64,000 bases of DNA, from the NCBI GenBank assembly GCA_016432485.1, contig CP066691.1, positions 516,709-580,708 on the forward strand, given 5' to 3'. Made by a program: the position numbers and the translations under genes. This document shows positions 5,328 to 55,932 of this stretch, piece by piece (position 1 is the stretch's first letter; each line of letters opens with the position of its first letter). The notes beneath the pieces are model-generated. The model ran no database searches and was not told the origin of the DNA. It worked only from the letters and a program-made list of their open reading frames with translations. The DNA is from Candidatus Niyogibacteria bacterium (GTDB taxonomy: Bacteria; Patescibacteriota; Minisyncoccia; HO2-45-28).

Positions 5328-5373
5328 GCCAAAAATTAAGGAATTAATTTATTAACGACTATAATTTTTGAGC

Positions 5374-5437
5374 ACCCTCACACCCATTGTTCAATGCGCG
5401 AAGCGCAAACGAAGTGTTGAATATTGGGTGTGAGGGT
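5374..5437. repeat. palindromic element A1: ~20-bp stem enclosing a short GC mini-hairpin and an A-rich spacer
   Basis: Arms CACCCTCACACCCATTGTTCAA / TTGAATATTGGGTGTGAGGGT with loop GCGCGAAGCGC-AAACGAAG. It is preceded by CGACTATAATTTT. It is related to the element at 26319-26387. Confidence 0.7.
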
Positions 5438-6657: not shown

Positions 6658-8481
6658 TCACTCCGCCTTAATCGGCAGCGTGAAATAGACAGTCGTGCCT
6701 CGCTCCTCCTCGCTTTCCACCCAAATTTTGCCGCCATGGCGTTCAATAATGCTTCGAGCGATAAAAAGACCCAGCCCCGAACCTTCGGTCTGAATACGGA
6801 TTGCGTTTCTTCCTCGAGCAAACTTGTTAAAAATGCGCCCTATGTCGTCTTTTGAAATGCCTATCCCCGTATCGCTAATCCGAATCTCCGCGAGACCGCC
6901 CTTGCCGGATATATATATGTCCACCTTGCCGTTTTCACGATTATATTGAACCGCGTTATCAAGGATATTTGAAAAAGCAAGATTGAATTTTTTGCGGTCA
7001 ATCATCAACGGCTGCAGTTTTTCTTTTGGCATATGGACCATCAATATAATGCCGCGCTCTTTGGCTAAAGCCATAAATTTATCCGCCGTTTCTTTTATGA
7101 TTCCGACCAAATCCTCTTTTTGAAAAACGAAGCCAAGCTGTCCCTCTTCTATGCGCGAAACATCCAGCAAGTCATTAACAAGATTAATCATGCGGTCGTT
7201 AGTCTGATTGGTCCGACTGACCAATTCTTTTTGCTCTGTTTGGAGTTCGCCGGCATCGCCGTCAAGAAGCGCGCGAAAAGCCCATTTTATCGCCGAGAGC
7301 GGTGTACGAAGCTGATGGGCCGCGATGGTGACGAAGTCTGACTTTTCTCGGCTCAAAAGCCGCTCGTGTTCGCGGACTTCCTTTATGCGAACGCGCATCC
7401 GATTAAATTCGTCGGCCAAGTCCTCCAATTCGTCGTTAGTTTTTACCTGAATGGCGTAATCCAGATTATCCAGCCCGATTTGCTCGGCCCCCTTCTGAAG
7501 TTCTTCTATGGGTTTAATTACGCGGCGAGCAAGAAGAATCGCGGCCCCCATTGCCACAGCCAATATGCCGGCAAGAATAATCAAAGAGAAAAAAGTAATT
7601 TCCCTGACCGCGGCCAAGGCGATGGCGGCCGGCAATTCGGCAACGATAAACCAGCGGGTTTTCTCCGCGCTTCCGGAGGCACCCTCAAAAGGAATAACAA
7701 TTCTGGCGCCGGACCCCAAGACCTCTTCTTGAATTTCGTTTTCATAAATATCCGCGAATAACGGTTCGCCGTTATCTTCTATCAAAGATTTTACCACCGG
7801 AATCGCGGAAAAATTTTTTTCGGAAAGTACTTGCGAAATGTCGGGGTGGGCTACGACAATTCCGTTTTTATCCACGATGTAAGCCCGGCCCTCCTCTTTA
7901 GCCACGGAAAGGTCTTTTACCACCGCCTGCATAATTCTGGAGTCAATTTGAGCGAAAACCGAGCCGAAAAATTTTCCGCGAGAATCAAAAATCGCCCGGC
8001 CTATCAGAAAAAAGGGCCTGTTTTTTTCCCAGAAAATATCGCTGATAAACCGACCCTCGTTCTTAGTCGCTATAAATTCTTCGTTTGCAGACCTGTTAAT
8101 AAAGTCCTCCGGGACTACGGTTACGAATTTGCTGACGCGGGCGGTTTCCATGCCATTTTGGTTGACAATTGACACTTCCACGAAACTATCATTGGTAAAT
8201 AGGGTCCTTTCAATGAAAGTTTTCTGAAGATCAGGCTGTTCAATGAGCGAAGGAAAAATGCTTTCCATGGCGGCCAGTTGCCCGAATTGATGGCTGATAA
8301 ATTCGGAAATTTCAAGACTCGCGAGAGCGGCGACATGTTCCGCGTGTCTCACGGCGTTCCTTTTTTGGATGTCCTGCAATTTGACCGTAGCTACGGTCAT
8401 GGCAAAAAAGAAGGGCAGGGAAGCTATGCCGATTAAAACCAGAATAAACTTTAGGCGCAATCTTTTTCTTAAAAATGGCAC
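6658..8481 (-). CDS. sensor histidine kinase with extracellular Cache-like domain, HAMP, HisKA and HATPase_c
   Basis: Two TM helices flank a ~250-aa extracellular domain. H-box IAAHQLRTPLSAI, N-box NLLDNAVQY, G-boxes DTGIGI and GSGLGL are present. Confidence 0.85.
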   Translation of the reverse strand: MPFLRKRLRLKFILVLIGIASLPFFFAMTVATVKLQDIQKRNAVRHAEHVAALASLEISEFISHQFGQLAAMESIFPSLIEQPDLQKTFIERTLFTNDSFVEVSIVNQNGMETARVSKFVTVVPEDFINRSANEEFIATKNEGRFISDIFWEKNRPFFLIGRAIFDSRGKFFGSVFAQIDSRIMQAVVKDLSVAKEEGRAYIVDKNGIVVAHPDISQVLSEKNFSAIPVVKSLIEDNGEPLFADIYENEIQEEVLGSGARIVIPFEGASGSAEKTRWFIVAELPAAIALAAVREITFFSLIILAGILAVAMGAAILLARRVIKPIEELQKGAEQIGLDNLDYAIQVKTNDELEDLADEFNRMRVRIKEVREHERLLSREKSDFVTIAAHQLRTPLSAIKWAFRALLDGDAGELQTEQKELVSRTNQTNDRMINLVNDLLDVSRIEEGQLGFVFQKEDLVGIIKETADKFMALAKERGIILMVHMPKEKLQPLMIDRKKFNLAFSNILDNAVQYNRENGKVDIYISGKGGLAEIRISDTGIGISKDDIGRIFNKFARGRNAIRIQTEGSGLGLFIARSIIERHGGKIWVESEEERGTTVYFTLPIKAE

Positions 8482-12605: not shown

Positions 12606-14624
12606 ATGGACTTTAAATTACATTCTCCATATAAACCAGCCGGCGACCAACCGCAAGCCATAGAAAAATTGAACGCGGGGATAAACGCCGGAAAAAAATT
12701 CCAGACCCTTATGGGGGTTACCGGCTCCGGCAAAACTTTTACTATGGCGAGCATTATCGCGCGCTTAAATCGGCCGACGCTCGTGATTTCTCACAATAAA
12801 ACCCTGGCGGCGCAACTCTATCAGGAATTCAAAGAATTTTTTCCGGAAAACGCGGTTCATTATTTCGTCTCTTATTACGATTATTACCAGCCGGAGGCCT
12901 ATTTGCCGGCCACCGACACATACATAGAAAAAGACGCCAAAATAAACGATTTCATTGACCGTCTTCGCCACGCCTCAACCGAATCGGCGCTAACTCGGCG
13001 CGACTTCATCATAGTCGCTTCGGTTTCCTGCATTTACGGAATCGGCGACCCCGAAGAATACGCTAAAATCGCGCTGGAACTGAAAATCGGGAGAGTATTT
13101 AAACGGGGGGATTTTTTAAAACGCATGGCTGATATGCAATATGCCAGAAACGACATAGATAAAATACACGGGACTTTTTCGGTCAAGGGTGATGCGGTTG
13201 AAATCGTATCTCCCGATGGAGAGACAATAATACGCGTTGATTTTTTCGGCGACAAAATAGAATCGCTTTCCGAGCGCAAAAACTCTCCATTGTCTAATTC
13301 GCGCGAATTAGACAATAGAAAAATCTTCCCAGCCAAGCATTTCATCACGGAAAAAGAAAAGCTGGGTGTCGCGATAAAAAACATAAAAATCGAACTTGAC
13401 GAACGATTGGAGGAGCTCGGAAAAGCCGGCAAAATACTTGAGGCCGAACGGCTGCGTCAGCGCGTCAACTTTGATATGGAGATGCTGGAACAAACCGGCT
13501 ATGTTTCCGGCATTGAAAATTACTCGCGCCAGCTCTCTTTTCGTAAAGCCGGCTTGCCGCCTCAAACGCTTCTGGATTACCTGCCCAAAGACGCGCTTAT
13601 TTTTATTGACGAATCGCACATGTCCATGCCGCAAATACGCGGGATGTTTGAGGGAGATAAAGCAAGAAAACGGGTGCTCGTGGATTACGGATTTCGTTTG
13701 CCTTCCGCCTTAGACAACAGGCCGCTTAAATTCAATGAATTTGAAGAAAAAATCGGGCAAACCGTTTTTATCTCGGCGACCCCAGCCGATTTTGAAATAA
13801 AAAAATCCGGAGGGGAAATTGTGGAACAACTTATTCGGCCGACGGGACTTTTGGAGCCAAAAATAGAAATACGCCCCGCCTCCGCTTCCGCCTTCGCTAA
13901 AGCTTCGGCGGACAAGAAAGCTACGGCGGGCAAGCCCGCAAAGGGCCAGATAAAAGACGCCGAAGAAGAAATCGCAAAAGCGGCAAAAAATAACGAACGG
14001 GTTTTATTGGTTACGCTGACCAAACGGCTCGCGGAAGAAATAGCGGATTATTTGAGGGAAAAAAATATAAAAGTTGAATACCTTCATTCGGAGATCAAAA
14101 CAATAGAGCGTTCAAAAACATTGCAAAATTTACGCAAGGGCGATTTTGATGTGCTGGTCGGAATAAATCTTCTGCGCGAGGGGCTTGATTTGCCCGAAGT
14201 CGGACTTGTCGCGATATTGGATGCCGATAAAGAAGGTTTTTTAAGAAATTTTACTTCGCTGACGCAAACAATCGGACGCGCGGCGCGTCATCCTAACGGA
14301 AGAGCGATACTTTACGCAGACACATTAACCCTCTCAATTGAACGAACCATCAAAGAAACGGAGCGCCGAAGAAAAATCCAAGAGGACTATAATCGCATCC
14401 ATAAAATCACGCCTCAAGCGATTAAAAAAGAAATAAGGCCTCCGTTTTGGCTGGAAGAAAAAAGCCAAAAAGACGAATTGGCCGAAACCCTAAAACAACT
14501 GCAAAAAGAATTCCGCGACCCGGCGCGCGTAAAAGCCGAGCTTGAACGCCAAATGCTGGAAGCCGCCTCCGAACTTCGTTTTGAAGAAGCGGCTAAATTA
14601 AGAGACCTCTTGAAAATAATTTAA
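12606..14624 (+). CDS. uvrB: excinuclease ABC subunit B
   Basis: [17 protein letters not shown] start, Walker A GVTGSGKT, helicase motifs and a C-terminal UvrB/UvrC interaction region. Start chosen at the internal Met matching the canonical UvrB N-terminus. Confidence 0.93.
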
Positions 14625-14644
14625 GAAGGGCTTATTATCTTTGT

Positions 14645-14914
14645 ATGCCAATAATCAAATCAGCCAAAAAAGCAATAAGGCAGACGGAAAGGCGGAGGCG
14701 CAGAAACATCGCCCGCAAAGACGCCGTAAGCGAAACCGTAAGAAATATCAAAAAACTTGTGGCCGATGGGAAAACGAAAGAGGCCTTAGCACTCTTGCCT
14801 CTGGCCTATAAAGCTCTGGATAAAGCGGCCAAAACAAATGTTATTCACAAAAACGCCGCCAGCCGCAAAAAATCACGCCTGACAAAATTCATAAAAAAAT
14901 CAGGCAAGCTCTAA
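14645..14914 (+). CDS. rpsT: 30S ribosomal protein S20
   Basis: MPIIKSAKKAIRQ... is the canonical S20 N-terminus; 89 aa, basic. Confidence 0.9.
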   Translation: MPIIKSAKKAIRQTERRRRRNIARKDAVSETVRNIKKLVADGKTKEALALLPLAYKALDKAAKTNVIHKNAASRKKSRLTKFIKKSGKL

Positions 14915-15790
14915 AATCAGGCGCTCAAGGCCGGATTCCAGATCCGCGCTTCCTTCTCTTGAGTCCCGCCAAAGGGCGAATAGTTCGTCCCAGATTTTGA
15001 CAAGCTCTTCTTTTGAAAATCGCGAAAGGGCGGATAAACTTTTCTGTATGACAAACGGATGCAAACCTGTGCTCGACTTAATTTGAAAATTATTAAGGCC
15101 TTTTTGCTTTTCGGCCGAAACAGCAAGTAAGGTTTTAATCTGCCACCATAGTTTCCAGAACATTTCTTCGGCCGAAACTCCGCTTGCCAAATCAGCATAA
15201 AAATATTTATAGGCCTCGCGCCTTTTTTTAAGAGTAAACAAGTCCGTCAGACCAAAGGGGTTGTATAAAAATTTACGGACATCAATTTCTCCCCCCAAAC
15301 TTTTAAGCTCAAGGACTTGTGAAATGGTCCAAAGATTTGACTCAAAATCAGAACTTAAAAAACCGATTTCCTGTTCTGACAGAGCCAGCTCCCTGACTTT
15401 TGCCTCATTTATTATCCAGGCCTTTGTTTTGTCGGCCGAAAGCTTGTCCAATTTCAGCGTTTTTTGGGCGAATTTTGATATTTTTTTTACGAGTTTGCTG
15501 TCCGGTTTATTTTCCAAAATAATATAAACATTTTTGGACTCATGCATTTCTTTCGCGCGCTTCGTCAAAAAATCGGCGTGAACTTCCAAAAGCCCGTCAA
15601 AAACGGCGGCTGATTTTCGGCCAAAAAGATTTTGTCCGGCAATCAAGTCGGCTATTTTTTCTTCGTTTGAATTTTCCGGAGTAAGTCGGTGAATCTCCGC
15701 TCCCGGATCGCGGAAAACAAGATTCGCGGTTATTTCACGGACATTTTTTCTAGCCCTATATGAATCCTCTCCGTAAATTAAATACAGCAT
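14900..15790 (-). CDS. holA: DNA polymerase III subunit delta
   Basis: N-terminal LYLIYGEDSY, 296 aa, with a HolA-like domain pattern. Confidence 0.6.
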   Translation of the reverse strand: MLYLIYGEDSYRARKNVREITANLVFRDPGAEIHRLTPENSNEEKIADLIAGQNLFGRKSAAVFDGLLEVHADFLTKRAKEMHESKNVYIILENKPDSKLVKKISKFAQKTLKLDKLSADKTKAWIINEAKVRELALSEQEIGFLSSDFESNLWTISQVLELKSLGGEIDVRKFLYNPFGLTDLFTLKKRREAYKYFYADLASGVSAEEMFWKLWWQIKTLLAVSAEKQKGLNNFQIKSSTGLHPFVIQKSLSALSRFSKEELVKIWDELFALWRDSREGSADLESGLERLILELA

Positions 15791-24437: not shown

Positions 24438-24962
24438 GTGCTTGAACTGCAAAAAGAAGAAAAAGTCATAATCGCCTTTCACCGCCATTGGATAGTGGTG
24501 GCAAATAAACTGACTTTTGCCGCTCTCGCTTTAATCCCGCCGATTGTCGTGCTTATTCTTATGCCGACTTTTCAAATCGGGGCGGAATTAAATCTTTTGA
24601 TCATCTACGCCGTGATCGTGTATCTTTTGGCGTCTCTTATGGCCGCCTTCGTCATTTGGTTTGATTATTATCTTGATGTCTGGATCGTAACCGATAGGAG
24701 AATAATTGATGTGGAACAAATAGGCATGTTTCGCCGTCAAACCTCGGAATTTATGCTTTCCCGCGTTCAAGACGTCACTGTGGAAATTCCCGGCTTTATC
24801 GCCACCTTGCTCCATTACGGAAACATTCGTGTGCAAACGGCGGGGGAACAAGGTTTTGAAGCCAGCGATATCCCCAACGCGGATAAAATCAAAGACATAA
24901 TTCTTGAGGAGGCCAGAAAGACCAACGGACATAGACCCGAGGAGACAACCAATCACTTATGA
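24438..24962 (+). CDS. YdbT-like membrane protein with bacterial PH domain (bPH_2/DUF304)
   Basis: Two N-terminal TM helices and a C-terminal domain, VWIVTDRRIIDVEQ...VQTAGE, which I take to be a bacterial PH fold. Confidence 0.5.
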   Translation: MLELQKEEKVIIAFHRHWIVVANKLTFAALALIPPIVVLILMPTFQIGAELNLLIIYAVIVYLLASLMAAFVIWFDYYLDVWIVTDRRIIDVEQIGMFRRQTSEFMLSRVQDVTVEIPGFIATLLHYGNIRVQTAGEQGFEASDIPNADKIKDIILEEARKTNGHRPEETTNHL

Positions 24963-25498
24963 GCGGACATTCCAAGTGGTCTCAAATCAAACATAAAAAG
25001 GCTCTGACTGACGCCAGAAAAAGTAAAGAGTTCGCGAAACTGGCGAAACAAATAACCGTTGCCGCGCGCGAAAAGGGGCCTGATCCGGCGTCAAACCCGT
25101 CTTTAAGGGCGGCCGTGGAAAAAGCCCGCTCTTTCAACATGCCCTCCGACAACATTGAGCGGGCGATAAAGCGCGCGACTTCGAAAGACGAAAACGCTCT
25201 GGAGGAAGTTTTGTTTGAGGCCTACGGGCCCGGGGGCAGCGCGATATTGATTGCCGGAATTACAGACAATAAAAATCGCACGACGCAAGAAATAAAGCAT
25301 CTTCTTTCCGAAAACGGCGCGAAGCTCGCCTCTCCCGGATCCGCAAAATTTTTATTCCAAAAAACCGAAGACGGCTGGCAGCCGATCGCGAACATAACAG
25401 TTGACGAAAAAACAAAAGAGGCGCTCTCAAAAATTTTTGAAGCGCTTGATGAAAACGACGACATAAACGACATATATACCAACGCAGATTTTACTTAA
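24959..25498 (+). CDS. yebC: YebC/PmpR family DNA-binding regulator (shortened)
   Basis: MSGHSKWSQIKHKKA... plus ANPSLRAAVEKA and EAYGPGGSAILI are canonical YebC blocks. 179 aa, so the C-terminal domain is shortened. Confidence 0.8.
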   Translation: MSGHSKWSQIKHKKALTDARKSKEFAKLAKQITVAAREKGPDPASNPSLRAAVEKARSFNMPSDNIERAIKRATSKDENALEEVLFEAYGPGGSAILIAGITDNKNRTTQEIKHLLSENGAKLASPGSAKFLFQKTEDGWQPIANITVDEKTKEALSKIFEALDENDDINDIYTNADFT

Positions 25499-25522
25499 TC
25501 AATGTCCTTATTTGAATTAAAA

Positions 25523-25552
25523 CAGCCCACGACAGCAAAGCCGTCGTGGGCC
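25523..25552 (-). terminator. intrinsic terminator of the GC-rich inserted gene
   Basis: GCCCACGAC-GGCTTTGCT-GTCGTGGGC followed by TGTTTTAATT on the minus strand. Confidence 0.7.
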
Positions 25553-25581
25553 GAGGGTCAAGGATTCAATAATCCAAGTCC

Positions 25582-26151
25582 CTACTTGCGGGAAACGACG
25601 CGAGAGCCGGCACTCCACCCGAACGGGTGCTTGACCGAGCGGGCCGCAACGTCCCAGTAGCGATCGACGGAGAACCAGCACGCGCGCACAGCCCAGAGCT
25701 TTCCTTTCTTGTCCCTGATGTAGGCGATGCACCACCCGCCATTTTGGTTCTTGAGGAAATTCAGAAAGTGAACAAGGTGGATTTCTTCCTTGTCTCCCAG
25801 CTCTTTCCGGATAGGCTGGTCCACGGACGGTTTCTTGAGCTTGTGGATGTTCAGCTCCGTAGCCGAGACGTTCTCCTCGACCTTACCCTTGAACAGGCGA
25901 TCGAAGTTGGAGCCCGTCCATCCGACATTGGCCTTTTTCAGGGCCTCGTCGTCGCAGACAAACCTTTCCGCGCCGTCCACTCGAACCGTGCCGACGAACT
26001 TGAGGAGGTCGAATTCCGGACTGAGACCGCGAAGGTACTCCTGGAGCCCCTGCGGGTCGTCAATCCATCTCTGCATGGCCTCCTTGTTCATTTCCGGCAG
26101 GTTTTCTGCGATTCGAGAAATGAACTTTCCTGTCTGTTTCTGTCTGTCCAT
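25582..26151 (-). CDS. hypothetical protein in a GC-rich (~56%) islet between yebC and ruvC
   Basis: Start placed at the internal Met with a perfect SD AAAGGAGGAAAAATCGCC-ATG. Lys-rich N-terminus, no recognised family. The overlapping plus-strand ORFs look like antisense artefacts of the high GC. Confidence 0.5.
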   Translation of the reverse strand: MDRQKQTGKFISRIAENLPEMNKEAMQRWIDDPQGLQEYLRGLSPEFDLLKFVGTVRVDGAERFVCDDEALKKANVGWTGSNFDRLFKGKVEENVSATELNIHKLKKPSVDQPIRKELGDKEEIHLVHFLNFLKNQNGGWCIAYIRDKKGKLWAVRACWFSVDRYWDVAARSVKHPFGWSAGSRVVSRK

Positions 26152-26290
26152 GGCGATTTTTCCTCCTTTGGGTTTTCGCCATTTTCGTTTGCCAGAGGGC
26201 CGTCCCAATGACAGCCATAGCCAGAAAATCTTAATTTTTAAGGCCTTTTGGCTATGGCCGCCGGTAAAAAATTTTAAGAACTATGCGTGC

Positions 26291-26319
26291 ATTATACACC
26301 CACCCTATTCGTTTGTCCC
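26291..26319 (-). promoter_or_regulatory. sigma70-like promoter GGGACA-N17-TATAAT for the GC-rich gene
   Basis: The minus strand reads GGGACAaacgaatagggtgggtgTATAAT, directly abutting palindromic element A2. Confidence 0.45.
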
Positions 26320-26387
26320 CCCCCACACCTATTGAGCAATAGCGCCTGAAGGCGCGAAAAAACAAAATTGCTCAATAGGTGTGGGGG
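26319..26387. repeat. palindromic element A2 (perfect 20-bp stem, GC mini-hairpin and A-rich spacer in the loop)
   Basis: CCCCCACACCTATTGAGCAAT / ATTGCTCAATAGGTGTGGGGG with loop AGCGCCTGAAGGCGC-GAAAAAACAAA. The arm sequence is related to A1 (CACACCYATTG...CAAT). Confidence 0.75.
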
Positions 26388-26429
26388 TCAACCCCTTCTT
26401 TTTGGGCTGAATCGTGTCAAAATTAAGTA

Positions 26430-26882
26430 ATGGGCAGAAAAATTTTAGGAATAGACCCCGGATACGGACGATTGGGATACGCCGTTTTGGAAAACGGCGC
26501 GCTTTCGGATGCGGGCTGTCTTGAAACGCCCAAGGAGATGGCACACGAGGAGCGGCTGAGGGTTGTGGGCAAGCATTTCAAAGAATTAATCCGCGCTCAC
26601 AAGCCAGAGGTCCTCGCGATGGAAAAATTATTTCTAAACACCAATCAAAAAACCGCCATGCGCGTGGCGGAAGCCAGAGGAACCATGCTCTACCTTGCCG
26701 ACGGCCTCGAAATACGGGAATTTTCGCCGCCGGAGATCAAGTTGGCCGTATGCGGATACGGCCGGGCAGACAAAAAACAGGTAGAACGGATGATCCGTAT
26801 GATTTTCAAAACCCGCGAGGCACTAAATGACGACGCGATTGACGCTGTGGCGGTAGCGTTTACCGCGTCCGGACGGATTTAA
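26430..26882 (+). CDS. ruvC: crossover junction endodeoxyribonuclease RuvC
   Basis: ILGIDPGYGRLGYAVLE N-terminus, catalytic Asp/Glu pattern, 150 aa. Confidence 0.9.
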   Translation: MGRKILGIDPGYGRLGYAVLENGALSDAGCLETPKEMAHEERLRVVGKHFKELIRAHKPEVLAMEKLFLNTNQKTAMRVAEARGTMLYLADGLEIREFSPPEIKLAVCGYGRADKKQVERMIRMIFKTREALNDDAIDAVAVAFTASGRI

Positions 26883-48581: not shown

Positions 48582-49445
48582 TTATTTTCTGCTGTGGATA
48601 TCTGTTCTTTTTGTCAGACATGCCCAATTTTTAAGGGAAAGTTCCTCTGCGCGCGCATTCTTGGCTATTTTGCATTTTTTGAAACTTGAGACCTGAAACT
48701 TGAAATTTTTTAAGTTATTTTTTAAAAGCTTGCGCGGGTGGCGGAATCCGGTTTTAACCAGTTTAAAAAATGCTTTTTGGCCGATTTTATGCTGACGAAA
48801 AAAATCAACCCCCCGTTTTTTAAATATAACTACAGCCGAATCAACTTTCGGCTGGGGCCAAAAATTGCCTTTTTTAACCAAAAAGGCAATTTTTGGCTTT
48901 ACGAAAACTTGCACCGAAATAGCCAGCAAGTTCATTTTAAATCCGAACTCGGTTCGGACCCGAACCGAGTTCGGATTTAAACTTGAACATATCCGTTTTG
49001 CTACCTCTTTTTGAAGCATTATTACCAACAACTTTGTCTTAAGCAGACCACGAGATACTTGGGGCAAGATGAGGCGCAGAAGCTGGCCGGTAAGATAATA
49101 AGGGATATTGGCTACAACCTTGTTTATTCCGATTCCGAACTCGGTTCGGATTCGGACGCCGAACCGAGTTCGGAATCGGACAATGTCGCGGATGTCAGCG
49201 TTGAGCAAAACCAGCCGTCCGGCATCTATAAAAACCCTGAATTTAGAAGTCAAAATGTTGAAAAGCTTAATATCTTTTTCAACTGCGATTACCTTCGCGC
49301 CCGTTTTTAAAAGTTCTTCGGTCAAAATTCCCTTACCGGGCCCGATTTCCAAAATAGTATCCTTTGGCCCGACTTCGGCCGCAAGGACCATTTTGCGGGT
49401 GATATTTTTTGAAGTTAGAAAGTTTTGTCCGAGTTTTGTCGGCAT
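48582..49445 (-). CDS. ksgA: 16S rRNA (adenine1518/1519-N6)-dimethyltransferase KsgA/RsmA carrying three in-frame palindromic insertions
   Basis: LGQNFL start, SAM motif EIGPGKGILT, NIPYY and PKVDSAVV. Three palindromic DNA elements add extra residues within its loops. Confidence 0.8.
   Translation of the reverse strand: MPTKLGQNFLTSKNITRKMVLAAEVGPKDTILEIGPGKGILTEELLKTGAKVIAVEKDIKLFNILTSKFRVFIDAGRLVLLNADIRDIVRFRTRFGVRIRTEFGIGINKVVANIPYYLTGQLLRLILPQVSRGLLKTKLLVIMLQKEVAKRICSSLNPNSVRVRTEFGFKMNLLAISVQVFVKPKIAFLVKKGNFWPQPKVDSAVVIFKKRGVDFFRQHKIGQKAFFKLVKTGFRHPRKLLKNNLKNFKFQVSSFKKCKIAKNARAEELSLKNWACLTKRTDIHSRK
48857..48897. repeat. perfect 18-19-bp hairpin inside ksgA
   Basis: GCCAAAAATTGCCTTTTTT-AACC-AAAAAGGCAATTTTTGGC; it encodes LVKKGNFW, inserted in the conserved PKVDSAVV neighbourhood. 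Confidence 0.85.
48940..48977. repeat. TCCGAAC-family palindromic element (38 nt) inside ksgA
   Basis: AATCCGAACTCGGTTCGGACCCGAACCGAGTTCGGATT; it encodes SVRVRTEFGF. Confidence 0.9.
49129..49178. repeat. TCCGAAC-family palindromic element (50 nt) inside ksgA
   Basis: CCGATTCCGAACTCGGTTCGG-ATTCGGACG-CCGAACCGAGTTCGGAATCGG; it encodes RFRTRFGVRIRTEFGIGI. Confidence 0.9.
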
Positions 49446-49446
49446 A

Positions 49447-51396
49447 TTATATTTCTATGATTTTTTCTTCGTCTGCGTTCTCCATCAGTTCTGGTGGAAT
49501 ATCCGAAAGAAAACGGGAGGGCATATTGGCTTGTTTTTCACCGAATATTGTTCTGAAAAAAGCCATTGAAAGAAAAACTTTTTTTCGGGCGCGGGTTAAG
49601 GCGACGTAAAAAAGCCGGCGTTCTTCCTCCAGCCTTAATTTTTCGTCTTCGCTTGCGATGGTAGTGTGGGGAAAAAGTCCGTCTTCAAGCCCGGATATGA
49701 AAACATAATCAAATTCAAGCCCTTTGGCCGCGTGAACCGTAGTCAGAGGAATGCCGTCTTTTCTGCTGCCGATGGCATCCTGGTCGGACATTAAACTTGC
49801 CTCTTCCAGCATATTCATCAGGCCGTCCGGCGGCTTTATTTTATCAAATCTGACGGCAAGACTTACCAATTCTTTGATATTTGCCAAGCGCATAACGCCT
49901 TCTTCGGTTCCGGCAGATTCAAACAGGTCAAGATACCCGCTTTCTTTGAGCGTCGCGGCAACCGCGCGCGACGCCGGAAGATTTTCAGCGGCGGACTTTA
50001 TTTTATTAAGCGTTTTTTCAAAAATTGATATTTTTTCAGCTTCTCCCGATTTCAATCCGACTGCCGCGAAGTATTTGGCAAGGGTTACTTTGCCTATGCC
50101 GCGCGCGGGCTGGTTGATTATTCTTTTTTTGCTCAAAAGATCATTTGAGTTGAGGGAGGCGCGGATATAGGCCAGAATATCTTTTATTTCTTTGCGGTTG
50201 TAAAACTTTACGCCGACCACGTAATGCGGCAGTGTGTATTCCAAAAATTTTTCCTCCAGAACTCTTGATTGGGAGTTGGTGCGGAAAAGCACGGCTATTT
50301 CTTCGGGTTTGGCTCCGCCGGCAATGAGACTTTGGGACTCGGCCGCTACGAAATACGCTTCGTCGTTTTCCGTTTCCGCGGCGTATATTTCCAGTTTTTC
50401 GCCGCCCTTTTTTCTGGTAAAAAGATTTTTTGGCAGACGTTCTTTATTTTTGGCTATCACGGCGTTGGCCGCCTCCAGTATCTGTTCGGTTGAACGGTAA
50501 TTTTCTTCAAGCGTTACGATTTTGGTTTCGGGATAGGTTGCCTCAAATTCCAGGATGTTTCTGAAATCAGCTCCGCGGAAGCCGTATATTGATTGGTCTA
50601 GGTCGCCGACCACGCAGATATTCTTGTGAAGGGCGGCAAGTTGCTGGCTTAAGCGGCTCTGGACATGGTCGGTGTCTTGATATTCGTCTATCAAAATGTA
50701 TTGCCAGAGGGATTGGTATTTGGCAAGAATTTCCGGATGCGATGAAAAAAGAACAACAGTTTTCACCAAAAGATCGTCAAAATCCAGACTGTTTGAAGAT
50801 TTCAATTTTTGCTCGTACAAGCTCCAGATTGAGGCCAATTTTTTTGAAAAATAATTTTCGTCTTCGGACAAAAAATCGTCGGCGTTTGCCAGATCGCATT
50901 TTTTCCCGGAGATTATCTTTCTGATTTTTGATGGCTGGAACTGTTTGGGGTCTATTTCCAGCTCTTTAATTGATTCTTTGATTAAAGATAAAGCATCTTC
51001 TTCATCTATGATTGAAAAATTCTTTTTAAAGCCAAGCGCCGCGGCTTCGCGGGGCGCGGCCTTGCGTCCCGCTTCACGTCTTAAAATCCAGGCGCCAAGA
51101 GAGTGAAAGGTGCCGACCCAAGGAGAAGCGTTTGAATCGTGCGGGCGCGGCGGCTGAACATTTTGAACAAGTTTTGCGATGCGTTCTTTCATTTCGTTTG
51201 CGGCTTTGTTGGTGAATGTTATTGCCAGAATTTTTTCCGGTCGGACGCCGGTCGAGATCAGATGAGATACGCGATGAGTCAGAACTTTGGTTTTGCCCGA
51301 CCCCGCGCCGGCCACAACCAAAATAGGGCCGTTTATATGCAAAACCGCATCAATTTGAGCCGTATTCAGGCCGGAGAGATGACTTGGGTTTGACAT
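49447..51396 (-). CDS. ATP-dependent DNA helicase UvrD/PcrA family
   Basis: Walker A GAGSGKT and superfamily 1 helicase motifs I-VI; 649 aa. Confidence 0.9.
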   Translation of the reverse strand: MSNPSHLSGLNTAQIDAVLHINGPILVVAGAGSGKTKVLTHRVSHLISTGVRPEKILAITFTNKAANEMKERIAKLVQNVQPPRPHDSNASPWVGTFHSLGAWILRREAGRKAAPREAAALGFKKNFSIIDEEDALSLIKESIKELEIDPKQFQPSKIRKIISGKKCDLANADDFLSEDENYFSKKLASIWSLYEQKLKSSNSLDFDDLLVKTVVLFSSHPEILAKYQSLWQYILIDEYQDTDHVQSRLSQQLAALHKNICVVGDLDQSIYGFRGADFRNILEFEATYPETKIVTLEENYRSTEQILEAANAVIAKNKERLPKNLFTRKKGGEKLEIYAAETENDEAYFVAAESQSLIAGGAKPEEIAVLFRTNSQSRVLEEKFLEYTLPHYVVGVKFYNRKEIKDILAYIRASLNSNDLLSKKRIINQPARGIGKVTLAKYFAAVGLKSGEAEKISIFEKTLNKIKSAAENLPASRAVAATLKESGYLDLFESAGTEEGVMRLANIKELVSLAVRFDKIKPPDGLMNMLEEASLMSDQDAIGSRKDGIPLTTVHAAKGLEFDYVFISGLEDGLFPHTTIASEDEKLRLEEERRLFYVALTRARKKVFLSMAFFRTIFGEKQANMPSRFLSDIPPELMENADEEKIIEI

Positions 51397-54981: not shown

Positions 54982-55030
54982 GTTTGCATATTAGCATTAT
55001 TTTTTATCTGCCCAAACTGTCCGACTCCAA

Positions 55031-55066
55031 GTCCGAACCGAGTTCGGATCCGAACTCGGTTCGGAC
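55031..55066. repeat. TCCGAAC-family perfect 36-nt palindrome (intergenic)
   Basis: GTCCGAACCGAGTTCGGATCCGAACTCGGTTCGGAC, abutting the stop codon of the gene at 55066-55932. Confidence 0.9.
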
Positions 55067-55932
55067 TATTGCGGGGGCAGGGTGCTCATTATTCTGATAA
55101 TCGCTCCGACGGCTTGTTCTGATTGGGCGATTATGAGAAATTGTTTATTGAATATGGAATATCCGATTATGGGTTTTCCGGTGCGGTTTCGCAGAAAACG
55201 AGCGTCGTTATTTTCCACGACCGAATCCAGAAAGACGTTTTCTCCGCGATCGTACGACAAATCCGGTTTAAGAAGTTTCGCGAAGTCCGCGGTCATTTTT
55301 TCTTCCCATTGAAGCAGGCCGGCGAAAGCCGAAGAATACAAATTGATTTCAATTATAAAAACGGGTTCGTTCCCCAAAGCAGTGTCTATGATTCCGAAAG
55401 TTGAACGCGGCCCCATTCCGTTTTCAAATAAAGGCGGCGGCGTAATTTCGACCAGATTAAAAATATCTTTCGCGTCCAAAAATTCATTTTGGCTCTGGTC
55501 AAAAGTTTTCACATAAATAAATTCTCGCGGCCGAAGCTGGGAGTCCAGAAATTTCTGCCATAAATCCAAAAATGTTTTTTGGTTCCGCGTTTCCAGCTCT
55601 ATGGCAACTTCGCGGTCCGCGCGGATTATGGGCGGCGGGGATTCTGCCGCCGTCCCCGCGCTGGGCCCCTGAATTGTTCTTTTGAGCCAAAATGCCCCGA
55701 AAGCCGCGACAATTATTATAAGCAAAGCGATAAAAACATAAATGGCCGGCCTTATCTTTGACATTGGAGATTCAAATGCGGCCGCGGTTTTTCTTTCCTG
55801 CTTCGCGCTGACGAGTTCACCCAGGGAGAATTTTTTTCCGCTGGCATATTCCCGGACGTCCGAAATCATGGTTCTTATGCCGGGCTTTTTAGGCTCGTTT
55901 TTTTCAGGAACATTTTGACTGCCGCCGTTCAT
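55066..55932 (-). CDS. hypothetical single-pass membrane protein
   Basis: 288 aa with a TM helix near residue 70; no recognised family. Confidence 0.4.
   Translation of the reverse strand: MNGGSQNVPEKNEPKKPGIRTMISDVREYASGKKFSLGELVSAKQERKTAAAFESPMSKIRPAIYVFIALLIIIVAAFGAFWLKRTIQGPSAGTAAESPPPIIRADREVAIELETRNQKTFLDLWQKFLDSQLRPREFIYVKTFDQSQNEFLDAKDIFNLVEITPPPLFENGMGPRSTFGIIDTALGNEPVFIIEINLYSSAFAGLLQWEEKMTADFAKLLKPDLSYDRGENVFLDSVVENNDARFLRNRTGKPIIGYSIFNKQFLIIAQSEQAVGAIIRIMSTLPPQ

Follow-up and report, generated by a model that had tools for sequence, protein, structure and literature searches.

A probable solo target module of a diversity-generating retroelement between yebC and ruvC of Candidatus Niyogibacteria

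A 64-kb stretch of a Candidatus Niyogibacteria genome (contig CP066691.1, positions 516,709 to 580,708; the whole stretch is hereafter called the window) presents an interrupted gene pair. In two related loci (L032, with a RuvC 75% identical to that of the window, and L034, 71%), the stop codon of yebC abuts or overlaps the start codon of ruvC, whereas in the window the two genes stand 931 nucleotides (nt) apart and enclose a single open reading frame (ORF) on the opposite strand. A preliminary description of the locus had read this segment as a horizontally acquired cassette carrying one gene of unknown family. The locus raises the question of what this gene is, and of what its composition and position say about its origin. 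By identity and by history, it is very probably a solo target module of a diversity-generating retroelement (DGR) of the type found in bacteria of the candidate phyla radiation (CPR; Patescibacteria). The insert and its immediate surroundings are laid out as follows:

25499 to 26429, no strand: whole insert, from the yebC stop to the ruvC start; 931 nt, absent in L032 and L034, where yebC and ruvC overlap
24959 to 25498, plus strand: yebC, left flank of the insert
26430 to 26882, plus strand: ruvC, right flank of the insert
25582 to 26151, minus strand: ORF of 189 amino acids (aa) with an ATG start, a member of a DGR variable-protein family without a Pfam model
25588 to 25695, minus strand: variable-repeat-like region, codons W153 to R188, with a conserved scaffold, 10 AAY-derived sites and adenine depletion

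The inserted gene and its protein family

The spacing of yebC and ruvC in the relatives confirmed the insert, and the promoter, the Shine-Dalgarno sequence, the Lys/Trp-rich ORF, the terminator and the palindrome were each found where the preliminary description had placed them. The product of the ORF is identical in sequence to QQG45918.1 (HYY55_02970, Candidatus Niyogibacteria), which belongs to a record of 836,981 bp. The 189-aa protein contains 10.1% lysine and 3.7% tryptophan and has no hydrophobic segments. That the ORF is coding, as had been claimed, is backed by homologues, by an intact conserved scaffold and by a confident structure model (predicted local distance difference test, pLDDT, of 86).

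Scans of the protein against Pfam, PHROGs, PADLOC and NCBIfam gave no matches, and a word-indexed search retrieved just seven relatives. An exhaustive profile search revealed 2,923 cluster representatives at an E value of ≤1e-3, 292 of them at 1e-30. The family, previously described as unknown, is a large family of DGR variable proteins, and none of 64 members scanned matched a Pfam family. One member, P0009 (926 aa), is composed of five tandem copies of the family core domain.

The genes that accompany members of the family tie it to DGRs. The gene for P0004 immediately precedes that of a 331-aa RVT_1 protein with the motifs LGNLTSQ and YADD, the first of which we take to be the DGR-type replacement of the QGxxxSP motif, and P0005 adjoins bAvd. 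Each locus was scanned for another copy of the gene's 3' end, with differences allowed only at the adenines of that copy, and template repeats (TRs) were detected in L010, L011, L020, L025, L026, L028, and L029. In six of these (L010, L020, L025, L026, L028, and L029), the pairs of TR and variable repeat (VR) span 109 to 136 nt and present 13 to 24 mismatches apiece, and 104 of the 108 mismatches fall at TR adenines. The targets in these six loci are 41 to 60% identical to the window protein. The closest homologue, P0002 (60%), is that of L020, a locus with both TR and Avd, and P0005 in L010 (46%) has all 22 of its TR/VR mismatches at adenines. A retron reading of the reverse transcriptase (RT) beside P0004 was discarded, given the LGNLTSQ motif and the TR/VR pairs and Avd of sister loci.

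These cassettes share one architecture, with the target on the plus strand followed by one or more hairpins, a spacer of ~330 nt, a plus-strand TR at an offset of +420 to +500, Avd on the minus strand and RT on the plus strand. The RT belongs to a clade of at least 8,000 proteins from many CPR lineages, and the best 120 listed in a profile search are 61 to 72% identical to the query RT. CPR DGRs have been described as a cellular clade (“clade 2”) with targets that typically lack transmembrane or recognizable domains (Roux et al. 2021, PMC8144416), and the large conserved RT clade found here agrees with that CPR-restricted clade. Two departures from the full layout were observed. L010 and L011 (L010 5088 to 5141 and 5989 to 6168) have an intact TR and Avd and an RT reduced to a remnant of ~60 aa. 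In L007 (6713 to 6800) the 3' hairpin of the target is joined straight to the RT, which shows that TR and Avd were deleted there.

In complete relatives, the target module is followed some 330 nt later by a TR, an oppositely oriented Avd gene and the reverse transcriptase of a DGR. This enzyme copies the TR RNA, misincorporating opposite adenines, and the resulting cDNA replaces the VR, so that AAY codons are rewritten.

The window protein carries at its C terminus the pattern expected of a VR. The scaffold W-A-V-x-A-x-W-x-S...W-x-V-x-A-x-S-V-x-x-P-x-x-W-x-x-G is kept, with W153, A154, V155, A157, W159, W166, V168, A170, W179, G182, and S187 all present. The consensus of six TRs of the same class is WAVNANWNSxNxYWNV(E/N)ANSVENPN(R/E)WNxGNQ(V/I)LSR, and at its 10 AAY sites the window gene has CGC, TGC, TTC, GAT, GAC, CGC, CAC, TTC, AGT, and TCT. 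None of these codons specifies asparagine and all 10 are NNY, which has a probability of ~1e-3 because just 51% of the other codons of the gene end in a pyrimidine. Adenine makes up 6.5% of the VR (7 in 108 nt) versus 28.5% of the remaining gene, and seven adenines is close to the expectation from 25% retention of the 27 to 34 template adenines of relatives. The 3' end of the VR with its stop-codon context, TCCCGCAAGTAGG, is identical to that of the TR-bearing L020. We propose that the window VR was written by such adenine mutagenesis; the target module alone is present, inserted at the once-overlapping yebC-ruvC junction.

The partners of such a VR were sought across the 64-kb window. No TR was found there with blastn, the adenine-rule scan, a degenerate {X or A} pattern or a class-specific TR motif. 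A tblastn search of the window with the Avd of L010 retrieved nothing below an E value of 0.2, and one with the RT of L007 found no DGR reverse transcriptase; its single weak match, a putative RT remnant of 45 aa at 50755 to 50883, lies within a UvrD-like helicase gene and was rejected as spurious. As none of these three parts is present in the 64 kb, the window gene is a solo target that is either served in trans or orphaned. A DGR located in another part of the 837-kb genome may still rewrite the module, which otherwise would be a frozen but intact orphan expressing one fixed variant; we regard a live trans-target and an intact orphan as roughly equally probable.

The AlphaFold (AF2) model has a pLDDT of 86 overall and above 92 for residues 50 to 189, and its N-terminal 45 residues are weakly predicted as three helices. 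The model places the VR on three or four β-strands (residues 152 to 160, 165 to 172, and 184 to 188) along which variable and fixed residues alternate. This arrangement would give the sheet a variable face, and the last ~36 residues may serve as a hypervariable binding surface built on a fixed scaffold of Trp, Ala, Val and Gly, with a putative ligand-binding function. With Foldseek, the best match in the PDB had an E value of 0.43, and the sole lectin among the matches was DCIR (E = 3; template modeling scores of 0.29 and 0.39). The best match in BFVD had an E value of 0.15, and the family profile matched nothing among PDB sequences.

Leader RNA, 3' hairpins and solo modules

The gene, predicted to encode a small cytoplasmic protein, is preceded by a sigma-70-like promoter and a structured 5' leader RNA and followed by two 3' hairpins. 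These features, all on the minus strand, are as follows:

26319 to 26291, minus strand: sigma-70-like promoter GGGACA-N17-TATAAT with a shared −10 context, GGGTGTATAAT; 10 of 12 positions match, and relatives have TTGACA at −35
26210 to 26262, minus strand: leader hairpin with the core TAGCCAAAAG-N17-TTTTCTGGCTA at 26218 to 26254; apical part of variable length, outer 7 bp covarying
26150 to 26182, minus strand: predicted stem AUGGCGA...UCGCCAU with the Shine-Dalgarno sequence in its loop, including the first two bases of the AUG; kept in L018, L020, and L007
26162 to 26166, minus strand: Shine-Dalgarno sequence GGAGG, 10 nt before the ATG
25554 to 25583, minus strand: first of the 3' hairpins, small, with the core GGATT-ATTG-AATCC, followed by the conserved linker CCTTGACCCTCGGCCC; layout common to L018 and L020
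25553 to 25523, minus strand: hairpin with a 14-bp stem (10 G-C pairs) and a 3-nt loop, then the T-run TTTTAATT; intrinsic terminator and/or putative DGR hairpin/cruciform

Promoter-like sites number two in the region, compared with 0.4 expected from shuffled sequences. L018, L020, L007, and L033 share a conserved sequence ahead of the ATG, and the hairpin core is identical in L018 and near-identical in L033. The leader folds with an energy of −45.9 kcal/mol (z = −3.4). Searched as TAGCCAAAAG-N(4-34)-TTTTCTGGCTA, the core has one match in the window against none expected from shuffles; it occurs in at least 120 metagenome contigs and has no match in viral contigs. A family of 2,923 representatives whose leader is missing from viral contigs is large and cellular, which was counted in favor of the DGR reading.

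Covariation supports a conserved structure for this leader. Among 68 distinct sequences, all seven base pairs outside the searched core show compensatory changes. Cells with a double change number 81, versus 24.8 ± 3.6 after shuffling (0 of 500 shuffles reach 81) and a maximum of 23 with the partner column displaced, and 96.6% of the cells of the outer stem are paired. The G-U wobbles on the sense strand of the stem point to an RNA rather than a DNA structure. A cmscan search of 25400 to 26500 against Rfam 15, at E values up to 10, gave no match to the leader, with sub-threshold noise of the microRNA type only, and the leader RNA is probably undescribed. In many loci the 3' arm of the leader has a second potential pairing partner, a GGCAGT segment farther downstream, and might thereby act as a switch. 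A conserved segment immediately preceding the TR in L010 (~5330 to 5395) and L020 (~1900 to 1975) reads …GATACAGCyCCGAGA…CAArGGGCAGTGGyAyAGA…, resembles the 5' arm of the leader hairpin and is possibly a structured 5' part of the TR RNA.

In the 80 leader-bearing metagenome loci examined (L035 to L114), the core almost always precedes a GC-rich ORF of ~190 to 230 aa, and many of these loci have a TR, by the adenine rule, 440 to 540 nt downstream. At least five or six classes of ~200-aa proteins stand behind the leader, with the C-terminal motifs …GFAFAVSQVSS, …WVFxRPRK, …WWFAGVRK, …PAAxSQVS, and …LSRDS. Some members of the other classes score E values of 1e-6 to 1e-12 against the family profile, a sign that part of the protein is common to the classes.

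Solo modules were counted among 26 leader-bearing loci with a complete ORF of ~200 aa and at least 1.8 kb of downstream sequence. A TR was present in 11, an RT in 15 and Avd in 13, and none of the three in 11, so that the solo arrangement of the window is common (~40%). A further family member, P0008, occupies positions 8001 to 8690 of L012, from another CPR genome, between mraY and murD of the conserved dcw (cell-division/cell-wall) cluster; no TR, Avd or RT was found nearby in L012. P0008 differs from its cluster-mate P0160 at four residues, all of them inside the VR.

At the 3' end, the RNA folds with an energy of −37.9 kcal/mol (z = −3.4), and the two-hairpin layout recurs in L018 and L020, where the hairpin sequences (25523 to 25583) covary. 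The GC-rich stem-loop followed by a T-run past the gene has the form of a Rho-independent terminator. In the Bordetella phage BPP-1, a GC-rich VR end with a hairpin/cruciform, in which the stem structure is important, is the target-recognition signal (Guo et al. 2011, PMC3240598). By analogy, the element at 25523 to 25553, besides or instead of being an intrinsic terminator, may correspond to the hairpin/cruciform found downstream of DGR variable repeats, and the GC-rich VR end of the window copy, which resembles an IMH (initiation of mutagenic homing) and is followed by the hairpin pair, is a predicted recognition element.

A wider proposal can be put forward, on balance doubtful but worth stating. 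The promoter-leader-gene-hairpin unit could be a dispersed, autonomous DGR target module in which the leader is an undescribed class of structured RNA, serving DGR targets of several VR classes in CPR bacteria and either controlling expression or coupling the target to the retroelement. The solo modules would then be live trans-targets, and the variable residues would sit on a β-sheet scaffold other than the C-type lectin fold.

Insertion site, composition and palindromic elements

A homologous unit is found at another chromosomal site in L018, where the flanking genes are 74 to 88% identical in nucleotides to window 13584 to 15130. There the unit lies between the equivalent of window gene 14906 to 15130 and rpsT, with 73% nucleotide identity to the window unit and 57% identity between the proteins, and the matching empty site in the window is at ~14896 to 14905. 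The homology of the two units extends from the −35 box to ~10 nt beyond the terminator hairpin (window ~26316 to ~25513), and no terminal repeats or duplications were seen at the cassette ends in this comparison.

In L033 (RuvC 68% identical), the same promoter and leader stand before ruvC in the opposite orientation, in a stretch 86% identical to window 26198 to 26298, and the junction CGTGTCAAAATwAArTAATG that precedes the ruvC start is shared as well. The ORF behind this leader differs from that of the window, and the contig stops 84 codons into it. This other ORF (in L033 1 to 500) is GC-rich (MKYDVYVGKVSVEAVFNRLGG…) and is preceded by an additional hairpin and another Shine-Dalgarno sequence. 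A different ORF behind the same leader suggests that genes are replaced behind a fixed leader, and the presence of promoter and leader at the yebC-ruvC site indicates that the locus is older than the window genome and plastic in content, rather than the product of a one-off acquisition.

The GC richness on which the preliminary description had relied is real. The gene has a GC content of 0.567 versus a window mean of 0.452, and 0.758 at third codon positions (GC3) versus 0.47 to 0.60 in ruvB, yebC, ruvC, tyrS and the gene for a penicillin-binding protein (PBP). yebC and ruvC have a GC content of 0.48 to 0.53, and their contrast with the inserted gene is sharpest at third codon positions. Among 38 loci with enough background, target genes have a median GC of 0.54 versus 0.394 for the remaining contig, and in 35 of them the target exceeds its background by more than 5 points. 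Since the excess recurs in 35 of 38 hosts, it is a trait of the family, which does not date the acquisition and is no evidence of recent transfer. RT genes of the same cassettes are AT-rich (median GC of 0.352 in nine loci with a full RT); the constant pairing of GC-rich targets with AT-rich RT genes is a regularity that may have to do with the maintenance of the genes. Of the claim of horizontal acquisition, the insertion, the self-contained unit from promoter to terminator and the copy elsewhere in L018 stand, whereas the composition is not diagnostic of recent transfer and the leader of L033 occupies the same site.

The right edge of the insert and the palindrome beside it are the following:

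26320 to 26387, no strand: palindromic element of 68 nt with perfect 21-nt arms (26320 to 26340 and 26367 to 26387), a secondary insertion in the −35 box
26388 to 26429, plus strand: junction before the ruvC ATG, CGTGTCAAAATTAAGTAATG, common to L033

On the minus strand the sequence at the palindrome reads TTGAC, the element and then GGGACAAAC, with GAC flanking either side; these flanks may be a target-site duplication. L033 and L018 have TTGACA at −35 and lack the palindrome at the homologous promoter position, which indicates that the GGGACA of the window is a by-product of the insertion. The palindrome, designated A2 and noted earlier at one edge of the cassette, is no boundary feature but a later insertion into the −35 box of the cassette. 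A related copy lies at 5374 to 5437, defining an element of ~65 to 70 nt with arms CCCyCACACCyATTGwkCAAT, and A2 can tentatively be called a palindromic repeat akin to miniature inverted-repeat transposable elements or repetitive extragenic palindromes (MITE/REP-like), with two copies in 64 kb. A second palindromic family with the core TCCGAACCGAGTTCGGA is found in the window at 48936 to 48981, 49128 to 49180, and 55030 to 55067. Two of its copies are read in frame within an rsmA/ksgA-like ORF (48582 to 49445, minus strand) as …RFRTRFGVRIRTEFGIGI… and …NPNSVRVRTEFGFK…, and the TCCGAACCGAGTTCGGA palindromes recall the Rickettsia palindromic elements, which insert into coding genes.

The gene order in this part of the window is ruvB, a small membrane ORF, a bPH_2 protein, yebC, the minus-strand ORF, ruvC, tyrS and the PBP gene. 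Uncoupled from yebC, ruvC presumably needs its own promoter. YebC is short (179 to 184 aa in the window, at 24959 to 25498, and in the relatives L032 and L034), and only the first 55 of 160 positions of the model for the second and third domains of TACO1/YebC are matched.

Rival readings and known systems

A generic single-gene cassette, recently imported from a GC-richer donor and with no link to a retroelement, would account for the absence of the insert from L032 and L034, for a GC and GC3 well above those of the neighbors, for the homologous unit at a different site in L018 and for the silence of Pfam, PHROGs, PADLOC and NCBIfam. It is highly improbable, and on identity already largely refuted, as many loci tie the family to DGR parts and the window copy bears the VR footprint; a GC excess constant in 35 of 38 hosts cannot date a transfer, and the leader of L033 at the same site shows that the locus predates the window genome. 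The unit from promoter to hairpins could also be a mobile element or integron-like cassette that moves independently of the DGR with the leader hairpin as its recombination site. Its different sites in related genomes, its clean boundaries from the −35 box to just beyond the terminator, the shared site and leader with a different ORF in L033 and the insertions inside conserved operons (yebC-ruvC in the window and mraY-murD in L012) would fit such an element. No recombinase or transposase, terminal inverted repeats or target-site duplication were found at the cassette ends, viral contigs gave no matches, and the sense-strand wobbles favor an RNA over a DNA structure; we consider this explanation very unlikely.

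The gene could instead be a decaying relic, a functionless remnant heading for loss after deletion of its TR-Avd-RT half. The absence of all three partners from 64 kb, the partial decay in relatives (the 60-aa RT remnant of L010 and L011 and the loss of TR and Avd in L007), the −35 box broken by the palindrome and the lack of sequence variants across 11 contigs speak for decay. Yet the ORF is intact with every invariant scaffold residue and a confidently predicted fold, and the leader core motif, Shine-Dalgarno sequence, IMH-like end and both 3' hairpins are preserved. Around 40% of leader-bearing modules are solo and nevertheless keep the exact leader core, which argues for a maintained function, and the solo copy of L018 has an identical hairpin core despite its divergence (73% in nucleotides and 57% in protein). 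Decay is on these grounds unlikely.

Four observations weigh against the solo DGR target as preferred here. The TR/VR pairing that defines a DGR was not found for the window copy in the 64 kb searched. The palindrome degraded the −35 box from TTGACA to GGGACA, by which expression is possibly reduced. Eleven contigs from several sequencing runs encode the identical protein, and its 90% cluster contains no variants; this invariance is weak evidence against diversification, because P0005, which has a perfect TR, likewise has an invariant VR. Foldseek finds similarity neither to DGR proteins of the C-type lectin fold nor to anything else, and the candidate binding surface is deduced from the alternating strand pattern only.

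Reading the gene as a solo DGR target turns a “hypothetical protein” in a curated CPR genome into a recognizable DGR variable protein, and shows that target modules can stand alone inside housekeeping operons. Contig-based surveys of DGRs miss such targets by design (Roux et al. 2021, PMC8144416). Should solo modules prove to be trans-targets, DGRs in CPR bacteria would reach further than is now estimated, with several scattered genes diversified from one RT. The leader hairpin offers a cheap and highly specific marker for target modules and is a candidate for a new cis-acting RNA. This kind of DGR target is itself already known; what is possibly new is the leader RNA and the frequency of solo modules. 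The locus also illustrates that a GC anomaly and broken synteny do not by themselves amount to recent horizontal transfer.

The leader can be compared with the RT-associated RNAs RT-1 to RT-19, which likewise combine a covariation-supported structure with a tie to DGR cassettes. Those motifs adjoin RT genes; RT-10 of BPP-1, for instance, occupies the stretch separating TR from RT (Weinberg et al. 2017, PMC5737381). The window leader differs in lying upstream of the target gene rather than beside RT or TR, in matching no Rfam 15 family and in being kept in solo modules.

The 3' end resembles that of BPP-1 Mtd with its IMH hairpin/cruciform (Guo et al. 2011, PMC3240598) in its GC-rich VR end followed by inverted repeats, with the structure of the stem conserved and not its sequence. 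Unlike BPP-1, the window copy has two hairpins, the strong one ~30 nt past the stop codon and doubling as a terminator, and it is cellular rather than phage-borne, with no C-type lectin fold detectable by Foldseek. Non-adjacent targets are known for 45 of 372 DGRs (Wu et al. 2018, PMC5758913). The DGR of Treponema denticola, with seven remote targets, is comparable in that targets with VR and 3' recognition elements lie far from the RT, and the window copy may likewise be served in trans.

The closest resemblance is to the targets of CPR DGRs, described as clade 2 (PMC8144416) and as a “CPR set” with the unclassified VR classes UVR1 to UVR6 (Wu et al. 2018, PMC5758913). The likeness to UVR1 to UVR6 is one of general description. 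Unlike these targets, the window copy stands without TR, Avd and RT in its 64 kb. In common with them, it has a C-terminal VR with AAY-rich template codons, encodes a small protein with no transmembrane segment, signal peptide or known domain, resides in a cellular CPR bacterium from groundwater and has homologues that come with a TR, with Avd and with an RT bearing a motif of the type [ILV]GxxxSQ.

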